NCBI RefSeq assembly: GCF_000020025.1
Contig: NC_010628.1
Coordinates: 7,380,001 to 7,412,000, forward strand
Source: Nostoc punctiforme PCC 73102
GTDB lineage: Bacteria > Cyanobacteriota > Cyanobacteriia > Cyanobacteriales > Nostocaceae
Length of the DNA stretch: 32,000 bases
Reading direction: 5' to 3'
The notes beneath the pieces are model-generated. The model was not told the origin of the DNA. It made no database searches and worked only from the letters and a program-made list of their open reading frames with translations. Below are positions 1 to 13,317 of the stretch, piece by piece; position 1 is the first letter of the stretch, and each line of letters starts with the position of its first letter. The position numbers and the translations under genes are program-made.

Positions 1-954
1 GGTTTATTAGTTAATAATTCAGCTTTTTTAGCTGCCTTAATCATACTTTATTTTTGGGTACAGGAGCTTTACGACACAAGCACAGCACGATGGGCAACAG
101 CTACTTTAGCATGGTGTCCCTATTCCCTTTATGGAACTGTAATTTACACCGAAGGTCTGTTTTTGTTGTGTACCACATCTGCCTTACGAGCTTTTGATAA
201 AAAGCAATATATTTGGGTAGGATTCTGGGGAGCATTATCTACAGCAACCCGACTACCTGGAGTTGCTCTTATCCCCGCTTTTCTGTTTGTTTCTTGGAAA
301 GAACGTAGAGGTATAAAAGCTTATATTGCCAGTTTAACTGTTGGTTTGGGTATATCTCTTTATAGTCTTTATTGTCAAATTAAATTTGGCGACGCTTTGG
401 CTTTCATCCATGCACAAAAAGCGTGGCGTGGTGATGCAACAGGCTTTGCTTGGGAAGGTTGGTGGAAGATGTTGATGCAAATTACGGTAGGTTTCACTAA
501 TTGGAAATCTGGTTATATTAAAGACCCTTTATATCCGTTATTATTTTTAATAATTATTGGTAGTGGCTATTTATTATGGCGCTTTCGTGTATATCTGGGG
601 ATGAGTAAATTCCGCTATGGATTATATTTTTTATGGCTATTGTTGTGGTCATTGACAGGAGATGAATTATTTAAAATTGCACTAGTTTTCGGCGGTATCT
701 ATTTACTATGGTTATCACGCGCTAAAATTCCCCTTGTTACTGTTGTCTATGGGTTTTCTTCCTTTGCTTTGATTTTAAACACCGGGATTACAGCCTCGGC
801 TGAACGCTACGCTTACGGTATTGTATCGCTGTCAATAGCATTCGGGTTATTACTTGCCAATTATCCTCGCTGGGGATACCCAATTATGTACTTTTTTGGA
901 ATACTAATGTTCACATTTTCTATTCGATTTGCCCGTGATCTTTGGGTAGCTTAG
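1..954 (+). CDS. Polytopic membrane protein, GT-C-type glycosyltransferase-like (PIG-V/mannosyltransferase-like); 5' end lies outside the window
   Basis: Frame 1 is open from base 1 with no stop before 954, so the listed 163 start is probably internal. The protein is very hydrophobic and W/Y/F-rich with many predicted TM helices, and it sits beside two other GT-C-like proteins. The family assignment is by resemblance only. Confidence 0.55.
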   Translation, partial: GLLVNNSAFLAALIILYFWVQELYDTSTARWATATLAWCPYSLYGTVIYTEGLFLLCTTSALRAFDKKQYIWVGFWGALSTATRLPGVALIPAFLFVSWKERRGIKAYIASLTVGLGISLYSLYCQIKFGDALAFIHAQKAWRGDATGFAWEGWWKMLMQITVGFTNWKSGYIKDPLYPLLFLIIIGSGYLLWRFRVYLGMSKFRYGLYFLWLLLWSLTGDELFKIALVFGGIYLLWLSRAKIPLVTVVYGFSSFALILNTGITASAERYAYGIVSLSIAFGLLLANYPRWGYPIMYFFGILMFTFSIRFARDLWVA

Positions 955-991
955 GCTTAATTCTGAATTCTGGCTCATGAATTCTATTTTG

Positions 992-2560
992 TTAATTTTT
1001 GGTAATTAGTGTAAATCCGTTAGTTGCTCCTATAATTTTACTACTAGTTAAATTCATTTGCTGTAAAGCCTCATTATCTAATAGCAAATAAGATTTATTC
1101 GATAGCATTTTTTGTAGAAGTGGCACAGTTGTAGCAGTTACCTTGCAATCGCTATAAAAATCTAAACTGGGACGGCCATAAGCAAAAGAAGTATAAATTT
1201 GTGTTCCTGGTGAAACATTTGCCCGAATTAATGCTGCTACTGGTTTAACTGGAAAAGCTTCCTTTAATTCCCAAATCCAAGATTGCGAACTTACCAACAG
1301 GGTTAACACTAAATACATCCCTGTAAATAACACTGGAATAAAGTTGCGATCGCGCTGTTTAACTAGCCATGCTGCGATGCCCATACTTATTACCAAAACA
1401 ATGCTCATGACTATCAAAATAGGCTCTTTCTTAATAAAAAAGTAAACACAACCTCCTAAACCAGCAATAGAAATAATAGCTAGAAATATTGTCCAGCTTC
1501 GCACTCGGAAATGCCCATTCTGCCAAACTTCACTCAAATTAGCACCAATCGCCAAGGCTAAAAATGGATATACAGGCATGACATACCACGGAAGCTTAGT
1601 TCTCATAAAAGAAATAGTTCCCAAGTAAATAATTGTGGTCAAAAGAACTAGAGAACCCCAAGTTTCATAACGTTTTTTCCAAGCTAGATAAAGCCCTCCA
1701 GGTAAAAATAACAGCCAGGGAAAACCATATTTGAGTAATTCTAATAAATAGTACCAAACAGGCCCACTATTACCTTCAACAGTTTGTGTAAGGCGGTCAA
1801 AAGCTTGTGCTTGAAAATGCACCTCTAAAAAAGTATTACCATAATGTTGCCATTGAGCAATATACCAAGCGATCGCAGGAGCATTTCCTAATAAAATTCC
1901 TACCCATAAATAGGGACTTTTCAACAAAGCTAATTGCCGATCTGCAAGCAAAAATAAACAGGCGATCGCCCCCAATAGTAAAACTATCGTTCCCTTAGTA
2001 AGAATAATTAACCCCAGACAAAATCCCACGCCTAGAGCATATTTTCGGTTCTGACGTGCCTTCAAAAGACAAAATAACAACAGCAAGAAAAAAGAAATAG
2101 TCATCCCATCTAACATCGCCAGTCTTCCATGACGCACCACAGGCAACATTGTCAAGTAAACTAAAGCAGCAAATAGAGCAGGTAAATTTTGCTTAAAAGC
2201 CAAACGCCCCACTAAATAAAGCAAAGGCACACCTAAGGCAGTTAAAACCGCACCAGGTAAGCGTGTGGTAAACTCTTGCACTCCTCCTAGTTGGTAGCAC
2301 AAAGCAATTAACCATTGCATCAAAGGCGGTTTTAATAAAAATGGTTCTCCCTGAAGGGTGGGATAAAGCCAGTTACCAGTCCGGTAAATTTCTCTGGCGA
2401 CTAGAGCGTAAGTCCCTTCATCCCAGTCTCGTAAAGGGGAATTTCCCAAAAATATCAACCAGAGAACTAGAGATATTACCAGTAAGCTAAATAACCATTT
2501 TTTGGGTGCGAAAATTATAGTTCTTTTTGTGAATAGCTTTACAATATTTGGGCGATACAT
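992..2560 (-). CDS. ArnT/PMT-like (GT39/GT83-type) dolichyl/undecaprenyl-phosphate-sugar dependent glycosyltransferase
   Basis: 522 aa. The N-terminal segment RDWDEGTYALVAREI...WLYPTLQGEPFLLKPPLMQW is typical of ArnT/PMT_2 family proteins. It has about 12 or more hydrophobic helices and a soluble C-terminal domain. Confidence 0.8.
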   Translation of the reverse strand: MYRPNIVKLFTKRTIIFAPKKWLFSLLVISLVLWLIFLGNSPLRDWDEGTYALVAREIYRTGNWLYPTLQGEPFLLKPPLMQWLIALCYQLGGVQEFTTRLPGAVLTALGVPLLYLVGRLAFKQNLPALFAALVYLTMLPVVRHGRLAMLDGMTISFFLLLLFCLLKARQNRKYALGVGFCLGLIILTKGTIVLLLGAIACLFLLADRQLALLKSPYLWVGILLGNAPAIAWYIAQWQHYGNTFLEVHFQAQAFDRLTQTVEGNSGPVWYYLLELLKYGFPWLLFLPGGLYLAWKKRYETWGSLVLLTTIIYLGTISFMRTKLPWYVMPVYPFLALAIGANLSEVWQNGHFRVRSWTIFLAIISIAGLGGCVYFFIKKEPILIVMSIVLVISMGIAAWLVKQRDRNFIPVLFTGMYLVLTLLVSSQSWIWELKEAFPVKPVAALIRANVSPGTQIYTSFAYGRPSLDFYSDCKVTATTVPLLQKMLSNKSYLLLDNEALQQMNLTSSKIIGATNGFTLITKN

Positions 2561-2637
2561 TTAAGGCTGATTAGGGTAGTGAATAATATTGCTAATTATG
2601 TATCTAAAATACTTACGATGAATACTTTTTTGATGGC

Positions 2638-4029
2638 ATGAGAAAAAAACTGAATCAGCTTGGTTATCTTGGTTGGATAATTGGCGTGAGTGCCTTAATT
2701 TTGTTTGGGTGCAGCAGCTTACGACATGAGTTGTTTCAATCAAACGCTTTTGATTTAGGAATTTTTGACCAAGCAGTTTATTTAATTAGTCAAGGGCAAC
2801 CGCCTATTAGTTCTTTCATAGGTTTTCATATTCTCGGCGATCATGCTGCTTGGATATTCTATCCCTTGGCTGTACTCTATAAAATCTATCCTAGTGTTTA
2901 CTGGTTATTTGCTGTGCAGGCAGCTGCCTTGGCATTAGGCGCTTTGCCGACTTGGTATCTAGCCCACCAAGCTGGACTGAAAGAAAACCAAGCAATAGCG
3001 GTCGTATTTGTGTATCTCTTGCAGCCAGTGCTGTTTAATGCCAATTTATTTGATTTTCACCCAGAAGTGATAGCTATACCACTACTATTGGCGGCGGTTT
3101 TAGCAGCACGGTTAGATCGGCTAGGGTGGTTTTGTTTAAGTATTTTACCGGTCTTAGGATGTAAGGAAGTATTGCCCCTCACTGTTGCTGGGATGGGAGT
3201 TTGGTTACTGTTGTTTGAAAAGCGGCGTTTATATGGTGCGATCGCTATTTGTGCTGGTGTCGCCTGGTTTCTGATTGCTACTCAGGTAATTATTCCTTTT
3301 TTCAACAGTGCAGAAGCAATAGCAATGGTACGTTACAGCTATTTAGGTAATTCAGTTATAGACATTGCAAAAAATATAGTATTGCAGCCAGGACTGCTCG
3401 TGGGAAGGGTTTTTTCACTGGATAACCTAGAATACTTGGTTTTGCTGCTAGCACCTGTGATATGGGCGCTTTCCCCACAAGGAATAAAACCTTTAGTAGG
3501 AGCTATTCCTTGTTTGGCGCTAAATATTCTAGCTGATTACTCACCTCAAAAAAACTTGATACATCAGTATTCTGTTCCAGCGCTGCCATTCCTGGTGTTG
3601 GCTGTAATTTCCAGCCTCGCCGCAGGTAGGGGATGGCTACAAAATAAACGAGCGATTATCCTGTGGTCATTGGTGGCATTTTTATGCCTGGCAAAATTTC
3701 CCCATTTTGGAGGTAAATATTTAAAATCTCTAGATACTTGGCAAGCTACAAAACAAGCGATCGCTCAGATTCAAACTAAAGGAAGCGTTTACACCACAGC
3801 AGAGATTTCCCCGCATTTAAGCCACCGAAAATTGATTACGTTTACAACTAGCGATTCCCCACCTGCTGATTTAAATACTTACAATTATGTATTGCTCAAT
3901 GTCCGTCATCCTGGCTGGTCAAATAGTCAGGAGTTTACTGCTAGCTTGGCCAATCAACTGAAAAATAATCAAGGATTTCAGTTGAAATATCAGCGTGATG
4001 ATGTGTATTTGTTTGTCAAAGTCGCTTGA
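2638..4029 (+). CDS. DUF2079-family integral membrane protein (predicted GT-C-like)
   Basis: 463 aa. The N-terminal FDLGIFDQAVYLIS...HILGDHAAWIFYPLAVLY pattern and the polytopic topology match my recollection of DUF2079 proteins. Confidence 0.7.
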   Translation: MRKKLNQLGYLGWIIGVSALILFGCSSLRHELFQSNAFDLGIFDQAVYLISQGQPPISSFIGFHILGDHAAWIFYPLAVLYKIYPSVYWLFAVQAAALALGALPTWYLAHQAGLKENQAIAVVFVYLLQPVLFNANLFDFHPEVIAIPLLLAAVLAARLDRLGWFCLSILPVLGCKEVLPLTVAGMGVWLLLFEKRRLYGAIAICAGVAWFLIATQVIIPFFNSAEAIAMVRYSYLGNSVIDIAKNIVLQPGLLVGRVFSLDNLEYLVLLLAPVIWALSPQGIKPLVGAIPCLALNILADYSPQKNLIHQYSVPALPFLVLAVISSLAAGRGWLQNKRAIILWSLVAFLCLAKFPHFGGKYLKSLDTWQATKQAIAQIQTKGSVYTTAEISPHLSHRKLITFTTSDSPPADLNTYNYVLLNVRHPGWSNSQEFTASLANQLKNNQGFQLKYQRDDVYLFVKVA

Positions 4030-4146
4030 GCATTGGAGTAATAATTCTCATTGCTATTGATAAAAAGTCCATATATAAATCTGATTGATTGGTTAGTCGA
4101 AATATAATATTGAAGGTTGCGCGTCCGTTCTTGACAATATTAGAAA

Positions 4147-4302
4147 TCACCGATAATCGCGCTCCATCTCACCCTGTTTTCCTTCCGGTGACATTTCGAC
4201 AATTTTTCCTTTGAGTAGTTCAACTTTGCGATCGCTCAAAATGCCAGCGTCAATCATGCGCTGATATTCGTCAATCGTCCATTTAGCAACTATCACACTC
4301 AT
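4147..4302 (-). pseudogene. Truncated Uma2-family (DUF820) endonuclease fragment, N-terminal ~45 codons only
   Basis: MSVIVAKWTIDEYQRMIDAGILSDRKVELLKGKIVEMSPEGK matches the conserved Uma2 N-terminus. The reading frame ends about 50 aa in, whereas the family is usually about 190 aa. The catalytic core is absent. Confidence 0.6.
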
Positions 4303-4435
4303 GACGATTGATTCTTCCCAATGATTCTTTATATTCTCCCATTTTAAAGGCACTTCAAATCTGATTCAGAAGACACGTCGGCAAGTATGTGATAAAACTG
4401 ATACACACGGTAAAGTCATAGTCGAGTATGTAATT

Positions 4436-5002
4436 ATGTTAAGAGTAATTTTGCTGACGTTGGCGCAGTCCGCCATAGGTATCGCTACTTTTATTATTCC
4501 TTTGACTAGCTACACCTATAATCAAGTAACTGCTACCACCACTAACTATCAAATTTCTCAGAATACTAATAATCAATCAACAGGAATAACTATTGAACGT
4601 CTAGGAATAGGTGGAGTGAAGCTTTCTATGTCTGAGGCACAAGTCAGAAAAGTTTTAGGTAAACCTGTAAAAGTAGAAAATGGTTTTGTAGCCGCTATTG
4701 GTAAAGTTCGTACTCTTAAATATGCAGGCATCACAGTTGATTTAGATGAAGGTGCTAAACCAGGTAACTTTACTGTTTATCAAATCAAAGCAACTAGTTC
4801 TAAATATTCCACCATAGATGGAATAAAAGTAGGTGACAGACAATCAAAAGTGATTAGAACCTATGGAAAAACTGAAATATCTCAAGATGGTAAAGTTACC
4901 AATTTAAATTACATAGTTGAAGAACCCAGCCCTGGAGGTTTAAATTTTTCTTTTGAAAAAGGTAAAATAACAGAAATTTTCTGTTTTTATTTGATGAATT
5001 AA
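4436..5002 (+). CDS. Hypothetical exported/membrane-anchored protein
   Basis: 188 aa ORF with an N-terminal hydrophobic signal/anchor (LLTLAQSAIGIATFIIPL), followed by a T/N/Q-rich linker and a beta-rich domain. I did not recognise a family. Confidence 0.55.
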   Translation: MLRVILLTLAQSAIGIATFIIPLTSYTYNQVTATTTNYQISQNTNNQSTGITIERLGIGGVKLSMSEAQVRKVLGKPVKVENGFVAAIGKVRTLKYAGITVDLDEGAKPGNFTVYQIKATSSKYSTIDGIKVGDRQSKVIRTYGKTEISQDGKVTNLNYIVEEPSPGGLNFSFEKGKITEIFCFYLMN

Positions 5003-5061
5003 GCAATTTTTATAATTAAATACTAATGCCATTTCAATTTTTCTCATAAATCTTTAGTAAA

Positions 5062-5331
5062 TCAGACTAACTCCGCAGCTAAAAGCCTACCTTCAATTGG
5101 TTCATACTCATCTTCTAGTAACCATAACTTGGCTGCATTATAGTCATTACCAGAAAATACAATTTTATACTCCTGCGCTGGGTCATAAACTTGACAGTTA
5201 TCTTGACTGTCGCAAAGCAATAAAAGAATATATGGAGGAGATAACATGGGATCTATCCATACTTCTGTAAATTCCCAATTATTCTTCACTTGGTCTTGTG
5301 CGGGGGATGACGTGGTATTGGTCGTCTGCAT
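5062..5331 (-). CDS. Small strongly acidic hypothetical protein, candidate immunity/antitoxin partner
   Basis: 89 aa with 15 D/E against 4 K/R. A GGGGAGA Shine-Dalgarno-like motif lies about 9 nt upstream of the ATG. The start overlaps the 3' end of the upstream 112-aa gene by 53 nt. Confidence 0.5.
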   Translation of the reverse strand: MQTTNTTSSPAQDQVKNNWEFTEVWIDPMLSPPYILLLLCDSQDNCQVYDPAQEYKIVFSGNDYNAAKLWLLEDEYEPIEGRLLAAELV

Positions 5332-5617
5332 TGATTTTTATCTCCCCATAGTAAAGTAGAGTACGGCTACCATCTGGGCTGATTCTATAACCTATTGGCT
5401 CATTAAAAAACATTCCATAACGGTTATATCCTCGAATCATTCCAGTGAATTGCCCATTTGCTATTATGGCTTGAGTAACTATATTCATTGTAGGTTCATC
5501 GTTAAATACATGAGCGGCAAGTCCCCGTTTGAGAAGTCTTTGACTTTGAGGTGTATCTGCTATGTGCTTGGCAACTTGTCTAACGTCAAGGGTAATTTGA
5601 CGATTAATTCCACTCAT
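5279..5617 (-). CDS. Hypothetical 112-aa protein, candidate small RNase-like toxin (speculative)
   Basis: The ORF has no recognised family. It has a helical-looking N-terminal half and a beta-rich C-terminal half, with E73, R78, R85 and H102 in an order loosely like the barnase catalytic residues. It is followed by the overlapping acidic 89-aa ORF. Confidence 0.5.
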   Translation of the reverse strand: MSGINRQITLDVRQVAKHIADTPQSQRLLKRGLAAHVFNDEPTMNIVTQAIIANGQFTGMIRGYNRYGMFFNEPIGYRISPDGSRTLLYYGEIKINADDQYHVIPRTRPSEE

Positions 5618-5701
5618 GATTAAGAGTTAAGTTTTTTGTATTTCCAGAATTGATGCTGAAAACACTAAATTCCAGAATTACGGTGAAAATATAACGATCG
5701 C

Positions 5702-5830
5702 AACCCCAGATATTTTTACACAAAAAACGGTAGAGCAATAAATACTCTACCATTTTGTAATTTTCTATTGAGATTTAATCCCAAGCTCTAAATTATACTC
5801 AACGCCTTGGAATTAAAATTACGGATGCTA
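5702..5830. repeat. Degenerate copy of the clpC 3' end plus downstream terminator region (partner copy at 13285-13395)
   Basis: By-eye alignment of 5722-5810 with 13285-13378 gives roughly 85% identity, including the hairpin and the string ACTCAACGCCTTGG that holds the last clpC codons. Similarity decays further on. The copy carries stops in the clpC frame. Confidence 0.75.
5722..5751 (-). terminator. Rho-independent terminator downstream of the P-type ATPase gene
   Basis: The 7-bp stem GGTAGAG/CTCTACC has a 9-nt loop. On the minus strand it is followed by a T6 run (A-run 5722-5727 on plus). Confidence 0.7.
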
Positions 5831-5874
5831 TTTTTGATATCGGTTTACCAAGGATTTGCCAAAATTTACAGTAG

Positions 5875-8841
5875 TTAATAGGATTCTCGCAGATGACTTT
5901 TCAATTTTAACTGTATTATGAAGCGCCATAGTTCACCAATCCAAAGCACTGTCGATGTTACAACAATTACACTTATCCAGTCCACCAAAGACAAAGGTAC
6001 TGTTCTAAAAACGCTACCACCAAACTGAATAATCAATATCTGTCCTACAAAAATGGTAATAGCGATCGCTACAAATCCTTTATTCTTAGACAAACCTTTG
6101 AACGCAGACTGCTTTAACCCCAAGCATCGAGCATTGAACAAATTCCAAAACTGTAACATTACGAACACGCCGAAGAACACGGAAAGCTCATAAGGAGTGA
6201 TTTCTCCATCTCGACGGATATAGCGTAAGAAACCAACCAGAAAAAGCAAAAATGCTAACCCAACAGTAAAAATATTCTGTGCCATTGCTTTGGTGACAAT
6301 AAGGGCTTCTGGGTTACGGGGAGAGTGCTGCATGACGCTCCGATGAGGGGGTTCCGTCGCCAAAGCCAAAGCAGCAAAGGTATCCATAATTAAGTTTACC
6401 CAGAGCATTTGGGTGACAGTTAGAGGTAGCGCTACACCGATAAATGGCCCTACTAAAGCAATCCCTAACGCTACAACGTTGATTGTTAACTGAAATAGAA
6501 TAAATCGTTGGATATTTTGGTAAAGCGATCGCCCCCAAACAACTGCATTTACAATACTGCGGAAAGAATCGTCAAGCAAAATAATGTCGCTGGCCTCTTT
6601 AGCGATCGCTGTACCACTTCCCATTGCCAAACCTACCTGAGCTTGCTTGAGAGCAGCTGCATCGTTTGTACCATCTCCGGTGACACCTACTACCTCACCA
6701 TTCTCCTGTAATAGTTTCACCAGCCGCAGCTTATCAAGTGGTCGCGCTCTGGAAAGTACCTTTAATTGCAGCACTGCCTGACTTGCTTCTTCGTCACTCA
6801 GTTGATCAAATTGCTGACCAGTCAAATGTAAATAACCGCTATTAAAGTCATCTTCTTCTTGCCAAAGTCCAATTTGACGAGCAATTTCCTTAGCCGTCTC
6901 CGAGTTATCGCCTGTTACAACTTTGACTTGTATTCCTGCATTTAAGCAGGCTTGGATGGCATCAGGTACTTCTGGACGCAAGGGGTCTAAAATTGCCACA
7001 AACCCCAGCCAAGTCATGTCGTGAGCAATTTCGTCCAAGTTCGTCTCACTCGAATGCTGTGAGACTTCATGGTAAGCAAACCCTAGTGCCCGCATTCCTC
7101 GTCTTTGATATTCTTTAATTGCAGATGCGATCGCGGCTTTATTCTTGAGTGATTCTAGTCCTTGCTGTGTAAGAATTTGCGAACAACGTTCCAAAATTAC
7201 CTCTGGCGCTCCTTTCACATAAAGCACATCCTTCCCAGTTACAGAGGAAATGCCAATTGTGCCCATGTATTTTTTCTGACCGCAAAAAGGCATTCGGGAT
7301 TTTATTTGAAAATTACCCCGGTAAGATATGTAATCAGTATCCTGGCTATCTAGCCATAAAAGTAAAGCTCCTTCTGTAGCATTGCCAATAGGACGAGGAG
7401 TCTGCAAAGGTTTTTTCTCTAAATCAGCAGTACTATTAACTGCGATCGCCTCCGCTATTAAACCTTTCACATCTTTAAGTGCTGGCAACAGTTGAGAATT
7501 CAAACTAGGAAAATTGACTTCATATACCCGCATTTGATTTTGGGTAAGAGTGCCAGTTTTATCAGAGCAAATTACTGTAGCTGAACCAATAGTTTCACAA
7601 GCGTGCATCCGACGCACCAAATTATTGGAAGCTGCCATCTTTTTCATACTGTAGGCAAGACTGAGGGTAACACTCATTGCTAAACCTTCTGGCACAGCTA
7701 CCACAATAATTGTCACAGCTACCATAAAGTAGTGCAGTAATGCTTTGGCAACAGTACTAGGTACCCAGTTATTTATAGAGCCAGGAATTAGTCCTAGAGG
7801 ATAGCCTAAAGCAAGTCCAATAGTGAAAAATACTAATCCTATACCAACTGTTTTTAGCCAACTAGGAAGACTATTATTTTCCAGCCATTTTGGTGCTATA
7901 AGTTTGCTACCAGCTAGCTCCAGACCATCATAAATTACAGGTAGCCATACTCGGCTAAGTGTTACTAGCACACTAATAATTGACAGTCCGACAACATACC
8001 ACTGTTGAGAACTCAGGCTTAATTCTTTAGTGACAAAACCGCGCACCAGCAAAGATATGAAAGTGAAACCAGCAAATCCAAGACCAACTACACCAATGAG
8101 TTTACTAAGTTTTTCTAGTTGATGATTAAGCGGTGTGTCTTCTGTGTTTTCGATGCTGGCAATTGCTGTTGCCAATTTACCAATTTCTGTATTATCACCA
8201 ACGGCAGTAACTTCAAAATAACCTTGTCCTTGTTCAACAATCGTACTGCGATAAATTTTGTAAGCTGGGTAAGTTCCTTCTTCAATACCTTGATTCTCTG
8301 CGTCAGCTTGAGTAAGCTTTTTAACTGGTTCCGCTTCTCCAGTGATTTTTGACTGGTCAATTTCTAAAGATATTTCTTCTAAAATTTGTCCATCAGTTGG
8401 GATTTCTTCACCTTGTTCTACATATACAACATCACCAAAAACTAAATCTTTACGCTTAACAGTGGTAAAGCTGCTATCTCGGATGACTTTGATAAATACT
8501 TCGTCATAAACTTGATTGAGAATGTCAAATTCTTGACTGGCTTTATATTCGTTAAAAAAAGCGAGAGTTGTCGCTAACAAGATAGCAGCTACAATCCCTA
8601 AACCTTCAGCATATTCACCCTCAAAAATTCCGACACTAATAGCGATCGCAGCAGCAATCATCAGAATCCGAATTACTGGATCTTCAAATTTCTCTAAGAA
8701 CAATTTCCATAATGGCTCTCGTTCTGGAGGAGTAAGAACGTTGGCACCATATTTTTGGCGATTGAGCTTAACTTCCTCCAAAGTTAGTCCTTGATATGGT
8801 AATTGAATCTTGTTGCCCTGACTCTTCTCATTAGTAAGCAT
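5875..8841 (-). CDS. Calcium-translocating P-type ATPase, PMCA-like (P2B-type)
   Basis: 988 aa with the phosphorylation motif CSDKTGTLTQN, an A-domain TGEA motif, the hinge GDGTNDAAALK, the M4 motif VAVPEGLAMSVTLSLAYSMKKM (PMCA-like) and an N-terminal Cation_ATPase_N-like segment. Confidence 0.9.
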   Translation of the reverse strand: MLTNEKSQGNKIQLPYQGLTLEEVKLNRQKYGANVLTPPEREPLWKLFLEKFEDPVIRILMIAAAIAISVGIFEGEYAEGLGIVAAILLATTLAFFNEYKASQEFDILNQVYDEVFIKVIRDSSFTTVKRKDLVFGDVVYVEQGEEIPTDGQILEEISLEIDQSKITGEAEPVKKLTQADAENQGIEEGTYPAYKIYRSTIVEQGQGYFEVTAVGDNTEIGKLATAIASIENTEDTPLNHQLEKLSKLIGVVGLGFAGFTFISLLVRGFVTKELSLSSQQWYVVGLSIISVLVTLSRVWLPVIYDGLELAGSKLIAPKWLENNSLPSWLKTVGIGLVFFTIGLALGYPLGLIPGSINNWVPSTVAKALLHYFMVAVTIIVVAVPEGLAMSVTLSLAYSMKKMAASNNLVRRMHACETIGSATVICSDKTGTLTQNQMRVYEVNFPSLNSQLLPALKDVKGLIAEAIAVNSTADLEKKPLQTPRPIGNATEGALLLWLDSQDTDYISYRGNFQIKSRMPFCGQKKYMGTIGISSVTGKDVLYVKGAPEVILERCSQILTQQGLESLKNKAAIASAIKEYQRRGMRALGFAYHEVSQHSSETNLDEIAHDMTWLGFVAILDPLRPEVPDAIQACLNAGIQVKVVTGDNSETAKEIARQIGLWQEEDDFNSGYLHLTGQQFDQLSDEEASQAVLQLKVLSRARPLDKLRLVKLLQENGEVVGVTGDGTNDAAALKQAQVGLAMGSGTAIAKEASDIILLDDSFRSIVNAVVWGRSLYQNIQRFILFQLTINVVALGIALVGPFIGVALPLTVTQMLWVNLIMDTFAALALATEPPHRSVMQHSPRNPEALIVTKAMAQNIFTVGLAFLLFLVGFLRYIRRDGEITPYELSVFFGVFVMLQFWNLFNARCLGLKQSAFKGLSKNKGFVAIAITIFVGQILIIQFGGSVFRTVPLSLVDWISVIVVTSTVLWIGELWRFIIQLKLKSHLRESY

Positions 8842-9007: not shown

Positions 9008-9712
9008 TCAATGCACTGGCAAGGACTTATGTTTCCTAATGGCGTTATTCATCAAGATGATCTGTTCGGCATGAAATGAGGGAGGCATCAAACTGTGAAT
9101 TCCATGATCAAGTCCATCGTGCATCACATCTGTTGGTAGTTGGGAATGGTCTAATCCCAAAGTGTGACCGATTTCGTGGGTGATAGTATTAGCAATCAAG
9201 TTAGACAATTGACTCAGATTCAGACTCGCTCGGTAAGAAGCATTAAGTACTTGGTCTATACGAACAGCAGCACGGTCTGTAACTTTATTATGACGGAAAC
9301 TGGCAATTCCTAGATAGTCAACTGGTTCTTGATCAACAAACACATAGACATGGGTAAAGTTTTGGTTCCACTCTTTTTCATCAGGTGGTTCTGAGGTCAA
9401 AAATACATTGACACTCCTAAAAGCACTGAAGACTTTAGCAAGCGCATCTGCCATAACTTCTAGTATGGTGCTATTATCTTCAGTGCCGATAATCATGTTT
9501 GAAATATTGACCCAGACACAATGGCGAACTTCGCTGTTTTTTGCAACAATCAACCATCCACAATATGGACACACTCGCCAATTAGTTTGGATATGAGAAC
9601 GGCAACCTTGACAGCGAGGTTTTGAAGGTCTATCAAGGTTAATCCGTTCCCAAATTGGGACTTGCAGCTTACGATTTGTCTTAGTTAAATTCAGGCGATC
9701 GTAGAGCGACAT
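9008..9712 (-). CDS. Zinc-ribbon protein fused to a matrixin-like (HExxHxxGxxH) zinc metalloprotease domain
   Basis: 234 aa. An N-terminal CxxC-N12-CxxC element (CQGCRSHIQTNWRVCPYCGW) is followed at the C-terminus by THEIGHTLGLDHSQLPTDVMH...SLMPP, which resembles the MMP consensus HExGHxLGLxHS plus a Met-turn. No signal peptide is visible. The start lies 1 nt from the stop of the upstream TerD-like gene. Confidence 0.75.
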   Translation of the reverse strand: MSLYDRLNLTKTNRKLQVPIWERINLDRPSKPRCQGCRSHIQTNWRVCPYCGWLIVAKNSEVRHCVWVNISNMIIGTEDNSTILEVMADALAKVFSAFRSVNVFLTSEPPDEKEWNQNFTHVYVFVDQEPVDYLGIASFRHNKVTDRAAVRIDQVLNASYRASLNLSQLSNLIANTITHEIGHTLGLDHSQLPTDVMHDGLDHGIHSLMPPSFHAEQIILMNNAIRKHKSLPVH

Positions 9713-9713
9713 T

Positions 9714-10322
9714 TTACTTAGAGCCAGCTACCCAGCTAAAGCCAAAACGATAGTAATCGTCTGCCTCTTTATGTCCACTAAAGTATTTTTCTTCCTTTAA
9801 AATCGTAACTTCAGAGCCAATGTTGCTTACCATAGCAGCAGCACAGAAAGGTCGATTTTTATCTGGGTTATTAAGTTCCAGATAAATTTCTTCGCCATTA
9901 CTGATTTTGAAAAGCATCCGACCATCCACAGACTTAAAATCGGGTGTTCCCTGATAAATTAGGGCAAAAAACATCACTCGTTTAATTGTGTCAGGTCTGT
10001 AAATGAACATATTTTCACCATCTGAGGCTGCTCCAGTACGATCATCTTTATCAAGAAAGATGTAAGGAGAAGAATTTTTGGCTCCAAAATTTCCTCCTAG
10101 AGGCTGGATGACCCCTTTTTCACCATTTACAGTTTCATACATACAGCCTAAGTCAAGGTCAGGAGCATTATTACCTCCAAGCAACTTGGAAAAGAATCCA
10201 GCGTTTTGATTGGACTGCTGATTCCAATTCAGGTTGATATGAACTGTCAGTTGCTTAGAGTTACCTGCTTTACTCAGGTCTATTTTGTGGGAATCGCCAC
10301 TCTTTTGAAGTGTAATAGCCAT
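9714..10322 (-). CDS. Divergent TerD-domain protein (TerA/TerZ-like)
   Basis: 202 aa with an N-terminus MAITLQKSGDSHKIDLSK, DLDLGCMYE, and a degenerate Ca-binding segment DKDDRTGAASDGENMF. The overall pattern is a TerD fold. Confidence 0.75.
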   Translation of the reverse strand: MAITLQKSGDSHKIDLSKAGNSKQLTVHINLNWNQQSNQNAGFFSKLLGGNNAPDLDLGCMYETVNGEKGVIQPLGGNFGAKNSSPYIFLDKDDRTGAASDGENMFIYRPDTIKRVMFFALIYQGTPDFKSVDGRMLFKISNGEEIYLELNNPDKNRPFCAAAMVSNIGSEVTILKEEKYFSGHKEADDYYRFGFSWVAGSK

Positions 10323-10343
10323 AATTACAAGTTTGCTCAGTAT

Positions 10344-10955
10344 TTAGGAGTAAGAGCCAGCGAGTTCACCTAAGCCATTGACATTGACACCATTGCCAAT
10401 AGCTGCTAGTTTCCAGTCATCATTGTGTCGATACACTTCAGCCAAGACCATCCCAGTCATGCCCAAATACTCCTTACCAGAGAGATTATATCGAGCCAGT
10501 TCTTTGTTATTAGCTGCATTAACCAGGCGCACAAAAGCATTTTCAATTTGACTAAAGTCCTGCTTACGGGCAATGCAATCGTAAATATTGACTACGAAGA
10601 CTAACTTAACAATCTGGGCAGGTATGCGCGGCAAATCAACTATAATCACTTCATCATCGCCATCACCTGCACCAGTTAAATTGTCCCCTGTGTGAGTTAT
10701 GGCTCCAGACAAATGCTGAAGATTTCCAAAGTAGATAATATTCTCTTTAGCCGTTAACTTGCCATTTGCATCCAGACAGATTACAGATGCATCTAGATCA
10801 TAGTTTTGACCACCGCCACCAAAATTACTAAAAAATCCACCGCCTGAACGTTTAGCCACATCCCAGCCCAGTCCACACATCATTTTGCTTAGACCAGGGG
10901 CTTCCTTAGAAAGTGAAATCCGCTGTCCTTTCTGTAAACTAATTGCCATACTCAA
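10344..10955 (-). CDS. terD: TerD-family stress protein
   Basis: 203 aa. MAISLQKGQRISLSKEAPGL...GLGWDV...DLDASVICL...[19 protein letters not shown] is the canonical TerD signature, including the Ca2+-binding motif. An AGGAG Shine-Dalgarno motif lies upstream. Confidence 0.9.
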   Translation of the reverse strand: MSMAISLQKGQRISLSKEAPGLSKMMCGLGWDVAKRSGGGFFSNFGGGGQNYDLDASVICLDANGKLTAKENIIYFGNLQHLSGAITHTGDNLTGAGDGDDEVIIVDLPRIPAQIVKLVFVVNIYDCIARKQDFSQIENAFVRLVNAANNKELARYNLSGKEYLGMTGMVLAEVYRHNDDWKLAAIGNGVNVNGLGELAGSYS

Positions 10956-13284: not shown

Positions 13285-13317
13285 AAAAAAAACGGTAGAG
13301 CAATAAATACTCTACCG
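13285..13317 (-). terminator. Rho-independent terminator of clpC
   Basis: The perfect 8-bp stem CGGTAGAG/CTCTACCG has a 9-nt loop. On the minus strand it is followed by T8 (A-run 13285-13292 on plus), about 45 nt after the clpC stop. Confidence 0.8.

Follow-up and report, generated by a model that had tools for sequence, protein, structure and literature searches.

What a pair of small, overlapping genes does in the chromosome of a filamentous cyanobacterium, with no delivery machinery beside it, is the question raised by positions 5062–5617 of a 32,000-nucleotide (nt) stretch of the Nostoc punctiforme PCC 73102 genome (NC_010628.1, positions 7,380,001–7,412,000 of the forward strand; the whole stretch is referred to as the window). 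Both genes lie on the minus strand. The first (5279..5617, minus) encodes a protein of 112 amino acids (aa) consisting of a stand-alone DUF6972 domain, a predicted ribonuclease (RNase) of the Ntox50/RNase A-like toxin group, and is referred to as the toxin gene. The second (5062..5331, minus) encodes an acidic protein of 89 aa with homologs downstream of long DUF6972 toxins and is referred to as the immunity gene. A first-pass annotation had proposed a toxin–immunity pair with a loose resemblance to barnase and barstar. The reading favored here, with a probability of about 0.72, is that the two genes form a cassette of a free-standing RNase toxin and its cognate inhibitor, translationally coupled and acting inside the producing cell in the manner of a toxin–antitoxin (TA) module.

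Both open reading frames (ORFs) are genuine genes and not chance ORFs, because their homologs are numerous, the two co-occur, the overlap between them is constant, and the codons that carry the embedded start signals are biased, as set out below. Protein searches returned approximately 300 homolog clusters for each ORF, with 277 homologs counted for the 89-aa protein, and each of the 83 related loci contains both genes. The 112-aa protein has a basic isoelectric point (pI) of 9.1. The 89-aa product contains 15 Asp and Glu residues against 4 Lys and Arg residues and has a pI of 4.05; the net charge of about −11 reported initially was reproduced, and the median of the family is likewise −11. No second copy of either gene was found within the window, and an Rfam scan of the entire window matched no family.

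The 112-aa protein is a full-length member of Pfam family DUF6972 (PF22319; E = 1e-51), with residues 6–110 aligned to profile positions 1–105 of 105 at 174 bits, against a gathering cut-off of 27. The first-pass annotation had assigned neither protein to a known family, which is still the case for the 89-aa protein and no longer for the 112-aa protein. Searches of both proteins against NCBIfam and PADLOC, the latter at E values up to 10, gave no match. When the DUF6972 profile was searched against 1.84 billion representative proteins, 241 hits were obtained. Outside the stand-alone cyanobacterial clade, the domain ends no more than approximately 3 residues from the C-terminus in approximately 80 representatives, within proteins of 200–2,103 aa. 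The modules found with it in these long proteins are SpvB, TcdB_toxin_midN, FG-GAP, and RHS repeats; RHS repeats alone; eCIS_core, SH3, and DUF6861 (in Cylindrospermum stagnale PCC 7417); Portal_Mu and Phage_Mu_F, the phage MuF toxin architecture; and a PT-HINT fragment. Polymorphic-toxin warheads are defined by an architecture of this kind, a C-terminal domain on trafficking or pre-toxin scaffolds (Zhang et al. 2012, PMC3482391), and this C-terminal placement is seen in the family. The protein of the window lacks a scaffold, signal peptide, and delivery module and amounts to the domain alone, preceded by approximately 8 conserved N-terminal residues; the motif in these residues (MSGI-R) is nearly invariant in the stand-alone clade and absent from the fused domains. 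The top 120 matches listed from a third homolog search, made with a broad profile, were all stand-alone cyanobacterial members, so that names for the long forms were not obtained from it.

One of the long forms can be placed in its genomic setting within the cyanobacteria. Positions 1–6606 of a locus from C. stagnale PCC 7417 (L087, CP003642) contain a cluster of eCIS_core proteins, one with a CHAP domain and one with SH3, DUF6861, and DUF6972, followed by a homolog of the DUF6972 immunity gene and a SUKH-3 immunity gene. This is a cyanobacterial polymorphic-toxin locus, and its warhead is 44% identical to the stand-alone toxin of the window. Separately, a short DUF6972 protein of metagenomic origin (P0257, 148 aa) was seen to begin with a hydrophobic, signal-peptide-like segment (MKRPTKTAIFGLLLLGLLSV), a feature that suggests a secreted stand-alone form outside the cyanobacterial clade.

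The 89-aa protein was also without a match in Pfam or among PDB sequences, and four divergent relatives of it likewise matched nothing in Pfam. Its AlphaFold model, with a predicted local distance difference test score (pLDDT) of 78.5, consists of four antiparallel strands, one helix, and a short strand; residues 1–18 are predicted to be disordered, leaving a core of approximately 70 aa. A fold search of the model against the PDB gave no significant neighbor (best E = 0.7, to an unrelated structure), and none of Pfam, NCBIfam, and the fold search revealed a helix-turn-helix, ribbon-helix-helix, or AbrB-type domain. Invariant residues include Trp19, Glu23, Trp25, Pro32-Pro33-Tyr34, an acidic run from Leu71 to Glu77 (LLEDEYE), and then Arg82.

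The identity of this protein is given by its genomic context downstream of the long DUF6972 toxins. In five of six long-DUF6972 loci, a homolog of the 89-aa protein directly follows or overlaps the 3′ end of the toxin gene, with E values of 2e-15 (L084), 3e-11 (L085, an uncalled ORF), 5e-31 (L087), 5e-13 (L088), and 6e-32 (L089) and an hhalign probability of 98%; the sixth locus (L086) contained no such homolog. Pairwise distances among toxins correlate with those among immunity proteins (r = 0.885). In three Microcoleus genomes, the toxin gene has been interrupted independently by nonsense mutations (codons 49, 56, and 64), and each of these genomes retains an intact immunity gene, the asymmetry that a harmful first product and a protective second one would be expected to produce. 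It is concluded that the 89-aa protein represents the cognate immunity family of the DUF6972 toxins, so far uncatalogued. The toxin–immunity character proposed at the outset is thus supported by the position of DUF6972 at the tips of polymorphic toxins, by the downstream homologs, and by the three nonsense alleles.

The manner in which the two genes are joined is equally conserved. As first described from the ORF coordinates, they overlap by 53 nt (5279..5331, minus), a segment in which one frame specifies the C-terminus of the toxin (ADDQYHVIPRTRPSEE) and a second frame the N-terminal tail of the immunity protein. In 74 of 83 related loci, the overlap has precisely this length. The Shine–Dalgarno (SD) motif that had been placed inside the upstream gene was found as GGGGAGA at 5341..5347 (minus), 9 nt upstream of the immunity ATG and made of the codons for Gly91, Glu92, and Ile93 of the toxin. 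The ATG itself (5329..5331, minus) spans toxin codons 96 and 97 (AAT-GCA), with the general form [A/G]AT-Gnn, and is kept in 81 of 82 loci. Codon choice in the toxin gene follows these signals, in counts that come from loci spanning several orders and that are not phylogenetically independent: the Gly91 codon is GGA or GGG in 89% of loci (39% for background Gly), the Glu92 codon is GAG in 94% (26% for background Glu), the combination GG[AG]-GAG occurs in 66 of 82 loci, and the wobble base of the Asn/Asp96 codon is T in all 82, against 61–68% for the background in the same loci. Residue 97 can be Ala, Val, Asp, or Gly, every one encoded by a codon beginning with G, so that conservation falls on the ATG, not on the residue. 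Selection acts on the embedded SD and ATG, with a measurable signal at synonymous sites. An in-frame GTG at 5287–5289 (Val15), the start in 75-aa annotations of some genomes, was considered as an alternative and rejected because the GTG is not conserved and the ATG is. Two small genes with a conserved overlap and an embedded SD and ATG show the translational coupling that is characteristic of type II TA systems, and they are presumably co-transcribed.

Similar junctions can be seen among the long toxins. In two Rhs loci, the immunity start overlaps the 3′ end of the toxin gene by 4 nt (ATGA), and in the extracellular contractile injection system (eCIS)-type and 407-aa long forms, the overlap is 32 nt, with an AGGAGG-like SD and an ATG drawn from the putative catalytic His codon (CAT-G). 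Tight coupling is a trait of the family, because the long-toxin loci also embed or abut the immunity start at the toxin 3′ end, and the 53-nt version is specific to the stand-alone clade. Within that overlap, the disordered residues 1–18 of the immunity protein are only weakly conserved as protein, and the same nucleotides encode the strongly conserved toxin C-terminus YHVIPRTRPS. The overlap is a clean natural case of a start codon and SD written in the conserved codons of an upstream gene.

The AlphaFold model of the toxin (pLDDT of 91.7) contains helices at residues 23–30 and 41–54 and six strands between residues 56 and 106, in agreement with the helical N-terminal half and β-rich C-terminal half originally read from the sequence. 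In a Foldseek search of this model against the PDB, a comparison made with a predicted and not a solved structure, the significant matches were 5E3E_B and 5E3E_D (probability 1.0, E = 4e-3, template modeling (TM) scores of 0.53–0.55), with 24% identity over 112 columns in the alignment to 5E3E_B and the next hit at E = 0.4. Chain B of 5E3E is the C-terminal toxin domain (CT) of CdiA from Yersinia kristensenii, an RNase A-fold RNase with catalytic His175, Arg186, Thr276, and Tyr278 (PMC5435912). The fold check against nuclease and immunity folds that had been suggested with the initial proposal therefore gave an RNase match for the toxin, CdiA-CT(Ykris), with no barnase type among the matches, and no neighbor for the 89-aa protein. 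A search of the toxin model against viral structures found nothing, and PDB sequence searches with single proteins and with a narrow profile returned chance antibody hits only.

At the level of sequence, the broad DUF6972 profile (alignment A3) matched the C-terminal domain of Bacillus subtilis YxiD (9V8I_B; E = 0.011). The matched fragment is Pfam Ntox50 (PF15542), the same fragment matched the DUF6972 model at E = 0.002, and hhalign of DUF6972 against YxiD-CT gave a probability of 77% (E = 2e-5). YxiD-CT acts as a tRNase, and its toxicity depends on Lys446/His447, His521, Lys524, and His528, the last in an HxVP motif, with His447 needed for both toxicity and tRNase activity (PMC12700104). 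The closest structure to YxiD-CT is MafB2-CT, and the closest structure to MafB2-CT is CdiA-CT(Ykris) (PMC9970974); through these links, the fold hit and the sequence hit both point to one structural group. The 112-aa protein is most likely an RNase of this Ntox50/RNase A-fold toxin group.

Conservation within DUF6972 indicates which residues may serve in catalysis. His18, Phe38, and Gly76 are invariant across the entire family, and Gly55, Gly59, Arg66, Ile75, Leu88, Glu92, Lys94, Tyr101, His102, Pro105, and Arg106 are nearly so. The His18 codon (5564..5566, minus), with that of Lys17 before it, aligns with Lys446-His447 of YxiD-CT, and His18 is the proposed general base. The proposed general acid is His102 (5312..5314, minus), which lies in the sequence Y-H-V-I-P-R and would be the positional analog of His528 in the HxVP motif of YxiD and Ntox50 (PMC12700104, PMC3482391). 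From His18 to Glu92 is 74 residues, the same as from His447 to His521 in YxiD, and from His18 to His102 is 84 residues, compared with 81 from His447 to His528. By this mapping, drawn from spacing and a partial alignment, the conserved K17-H18, K94, and Y101-H102-x-x-P105 of DUF6972 may correspond to members of the Ntox50 residue set (H, S, K, T, H, K, and HxVP, with three catalytic histidines), and Glu92 would stand at the position of the middle His. Comparison with the active site of CdiA-CT(Ykris) also places the invariant His18 after a basic residue. On the strength of these patterns, His18 and His102 are likely the catalytic histidines.

The same data bear on the resemblance to barnase, for which residues Glu73, Arg78, Arg85, and His102 had been singled out. 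Of these, His102 is nearly invariant family-wide and Arg78 is invariant in the close cyanobacterial clade only; Glu73 and Arg85 are variable even there. That the genes encode a true barnase/barstar homolog pair, an N1/T1-type RNase with a barstar-type inhibitor, is extremely improbable and poorly supported: the proteins are of comparable length (112 and 89 aa, with 110 and 90 aa for barnase and barstar), a basic toxin is paired with an acidic partner, and a His stands at position 102, but there was no Pfam or PDB sequence hit to either family, and no barnase, binase, RNase Sa, or barstar appeared in the fold searches. Barstar identity of the 89-aa protein was rejected as well, its predicted antiparallel β-meander with a helix not being the barstar α/β fold. 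The analogy is coincidental.

To place the pair across species, one genome per species was scanned. Relatives were detected in at least 473 genomes, and the best 80 loci, which were fetched, all come from cyanobacteria (Nostocales, Microcoleus and other Oscillatoriales, Planktothrix, Leptolyngbya-like strains, Coleofasciculus, and Waterburya). Members from Chroococcidiopsis and Geminocystis turn up in the protein searches; the pair is not universal among cyanobacteria. Identity across the cyanobacterial orders is 63–95%, and the median ratio of nonsynonymous to synonymous substitution rates (dN/dS) is approximately 0.15 for the toxin and 0.13 for the immunity gene, values that indicate purifying selection on both. 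Similarity mostly follows taxonomy: the values are 0.83 within the Nostocales and 0.90 within the Microcoleus group, against 0.70 from one to the other. Exceptions, such as a Nostoc metagenome-assembled genome that is nearest to Coleofasciculus and an 89% identity between Planktothrix and Pegethrix, suggest occasional transfer or paralogy. In addition, DUF6972 proteins from Dolichospermum (P0433), Halotia (P0419), and Nostoc (P0093 and L080) are approximately 59–64% identical to that of the window and nearer to the Coleofasciculus and Leptolyngbya versions than to those of other Nostocales; this Nostocales type of approximately 60% identity could be a second paralog or the product of horizontal transfer. 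The toxin had no tblastn match in collections of 72,556 plasmid records and 50,697 phage records. Clustering of neighboring genes in 81 loci identified no gene that is conserved with the pair across orders.

Two further explanations stand beside the favored one in the light of this distribution. It is unlikely, though arguable, that the toxin is an exported weapon, loaded as a free protein in trans on a contractile injection system or leaving by another route, with the 89-aa protein serving for self-protection only. The same domain is a warhead on eCIS-core, Rhs, and MuF proteins, including one from the cyanobacterium C. stagnale PCC 7417, and the MSGI-R motif of the stand-alone clade could be a loading signal. 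This explanation has to contend with the lack of a signal peptide, with the finding that no secretion or injection genes are conserved beside the pair in the 81 loci or present in the window, and with the purifying selection and 63–95% identity across orders, whereas competition toxins typically diversify between strains (PMC5435912). Such between-strain diversification, typical of polymorphic toxins, was not seen in the stand-alone clade. The second explanation, judged quite unlikely, is one of housekeeping: the RNase would have been domesticated into a non-lethal enzyme of RNA processing or turnover that no longer acts as a toxin, and the 89-aa protein would be its dedicated regulatory inhibitor. 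Presence in so many species genomes, low dN/dS, an exclusively chromosomal location, and similarity that mostly follows taxonomy are all in keeping with it. However, all the candidate catalytic residues of the toxin family are kept, and the threefold loss of the toxin by nonsense mutation with retention of the inhibitor fits a dangerous enzyme better than a needed one; also against it are the absence of the pair from some cyanobacteria and the similarities that cross taxonomic lines, as between Planktothrix and Pegethrix.

The surroundings of the pair are of relevance to a further alternative, in which an orphan warhead–immunity cassette, left by a decayed Rhs, contact-dependent inhibition (CDI), or eCIS toxin gene, is kept as a recombination reservoir or for its immunity gene. 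Stand-alone toxin cassettes are known at polymorphic toxin loci (PMC3482391), and the few loci with a toxin pseudogene and an intact immunity gene would be accounted for in this way. It is nevertheless a poorly supported and very improbable explanation, as an ATG and N-terminus proper to the toxin are conserved in essentially all loci, purifying selection extends over its entire length, no Rhs, CdiA, or eCIS remnant lies upstream in the window, and no flanking family recurs across orders. The first-pass annotation had placed the pair in a patch of decayed selfish genes. Such a patch is not evident: the surroundings are ordinary chromosomal genes, with a DUF2079 membrane protein, a PMT-type glycosyltransferase, a P-type cation ATPase, a metallopeptidase-like protein, and TerD as neighbors, and the GC content is unremarkable. 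A 68-aa ORF at 4147–4353 (minus), which had been called a Uma2 fragment, has no Pfam match at E values up to 0.01. Its WTIDEY..M...G motif is reminiscent of the N-termini of the Uma2 family.

The favored reading, a coupled toxin–inhibitor cassette that acts within its producer, can be cast as a mechanism. The cassette would be derived from, or ancestral to, a polymorphic-toxin warhead. Its toxin would be a cytoplasmic, metal-independent endoribonuclease in which His18, with Lys17, and His102 form the acid–base pair and Glu92, Lys94, Arg66, and Arg106 shape the phosphate-binding site. The inhibitor would most likely cover the basic RNA-binding cleft through its invariant acidic LLEDEYE segment. 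Because the immunity reading frame opens 53 nt before the toxin frame ends, behind an SD supplied by the Gly91-Glu92 codons, ribosomes finishing or traversing the toxin message would be positioned to make the inhibitor, and the RNase could be freed when the inhibitor is depleted, for example by phage infection or stress. An intracellular, TA-like role is proposed because there is no delivery domain and there are no secretion neighbors, the pair is chromosomal, and both genes are under purifying selection. A more speculative and rather unlikely elaboration is that cyanobacteria as a lineage possess in this cassette a self-targeting RNase switch, passed on largely by vertical descent. It would be a warhead domesticated for controlled self-intoxication, for example in abortive infection, stress dormancy, or the programmed death of single cells of a filament, in which the 18-residue inhibitor tail arising from the frozen overlap would be a degradation or regulatory handle that releases the RNase.

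Several points weigh against the favored reading. No papers on DUF6972 or PF22319 were found, and hence no reported toxicity, RNase activity, or complex formation for any DUF6972 protein. The fold match to 5E3E is modest (TM of 0.55, root-mean-square deviation of 5 Å), and YxiD-CT and MafB2-CT were not among the Foldseek hits of the toxin model. The link to Ntox50 is weak in sequence (E = 0.011, and 77% on a 68-residue fragment), and the window protein itself did not match the Ntox50 hidden Markov model (PF15542) at E values up to 10. The chemistry may differ from that of Ntox50, whose middle catalytic His is replaced here by Glu92. In one locus, from Microcoleus sp. herbarium19 (L053, at approximately position 6287), the immunity start is ATA and not ATG, although the toxin ORF looks intact at 111 aa; translation there begins at a near-cognate codon or at a downstream GTG, or else the toxin is inactive for some other reason. 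The toxin-first gene order is that of higBA and mqsRA and differs from the classical type II TA order, and the 89-aa protein has no detectable DNA-binding domain, so that autoregulation is not expected. Lastly, the strong conservation could equally mean a non-toxic housekeeping RNase with its regulator.

Upstream of the cassette, the region at 5618..5728 (minus), between a terminator-like hairpin and the toxin ATG, is presumed to hold the promoter of the cassette and is conserved in close Nostoc relatives only. A scan for promoter consensus sequences upstream of the pair found nothing above chance, and a terminator scan called none. The hairpin has 23 nt (GGTAGAG-N9-CTCTACC), followed on the minus strand by a G and a T-run, and occurs at 5729–5751 and again at 13294–13316, with a chance expectation of 0; the terminator scan missed it because its loop is 9 nt long. 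The same hairpin was found in 19 of 83 related loci, all from the Nostocales and at varying distances from the cassette. The idea that it belongs to the cassette was rejected, since the hairpin recurs as a dispersed repeat, apparently of the terminator type; transcription of the P-type ATPase gene probably ends at the copy at 5729–5751. The hairpin lies only approximately 135 nt upstream of the toxin gene in the window and in L007, L008, and L011. An ORF of approximately 850 aa can be seen between hairpin and cassette in 21 Nostocales loci (L005, L006, L010, L015, and others), approximately 0.15–2.7 kb upstream of the toxin, and the difference in distance suggests insertion or rearrangement beside the cassette. 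Farther upstream, beyond the ATPase gene, three genes on the same strand (9008–10955, minus) encode a zinc-ribbon/metallopeptidase-like protein, a 202-aa protein without a family match, and a TerD-domain protein; these are unrelated to the pair.

Taken together, the analysis assigns a testable function to the uncharacterized family DUF6972, that of a probable RNase toxin with named candidate catalytic residues, and defines its previously uncatalogued cognate immunity family. A warhead of Rhs, MuF, and eCIS toxins has been kept as a bare chromosomal cassette in at least 473 species genomes, cyanobacterial wherever examined.

Comparison with known systems shows where the pair resembles them and where it departs from them. 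With barnase and barstar it shares general logic only, a small basic RNase and a small acidic inhibitor of similar size, and barnase is secreted by means of a signal peptide, which the 112-aa protein does not have. A single thread leads to barnase, the assignment of Ntox50 in the literature to a very broad fold class, Barnase-EndoU-Colicin-RelE (BECR) (PMC12700104, PMC3482391). CdiA-CT/CdiI of Y. kristensenii is the sole significant structural match, and the toxins have in common an N-terminal His after a basic residue (R174-H175 in CdiA-CT, K17-H18 here). CdiI(Ykris) binds over the toxin active site (PMC5435912). The CdiA-CT active site is of the His-Arg-Thr/Tyr type without a second His, whereas DUF6972 retains a C-terminal His, and CdiI(Ykris) is all-helical, whereas the 89-aa protein is mostly β. 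CdiA-CT is moreover delivered by a type V system, whereas the window pair has no delivery module, and there is no match between the two at the sequence level.

The Ntox50 toxins, with their immunity proteins (YxiD-CT/YxxD of B. subtilis and MafB2-CT/MafI2 of Neisseria meningitidis), are like DUF6972 in being approximately 105 aa long, of α + β structure, and placed at the very C-terminal end of polymorphic toxins, among them MuF- and HINT-linked forms (PMC12700104, PMC9970974, PMC3482391). Both have a K-H near the N-terminus and an H-x-x-P at the C-terminus, and in both an acidic, inhibiting partner is encoded directly downstream. They differ in the Glu92 that stands at the position of the middle catalytic His (H521/H402), in the 89-aa protein being unrelated to the Sm-like YxxD, and in the window pair being stand-alone, conserved, and without a link to type VII secretion, Maf, or type VI secretion systems. 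Cyanobacteria are not included in the phyletic range listed for Ntox50 (PMC3482391).

With the type II TA systems RelE, HigB, and MqsR, the pair shares two small, coupled chromosomal genes, a basic BECR-class toxin, an acidic partner, and a likely intracellular action. It differs from them in being unusually conserved and lineage-wide, with no plasmid or phage copies, and in being homologous to polymorphic-toxin warheads and not to RelE-family toxins. From polymorphic toxins, in turn, the stand-alone pair is set apart by having no delivery module and by showing no diversification. Warfare between strains offers no explanation for so conserved a deployment of a warhead without delivery, which points to an intracellular role.

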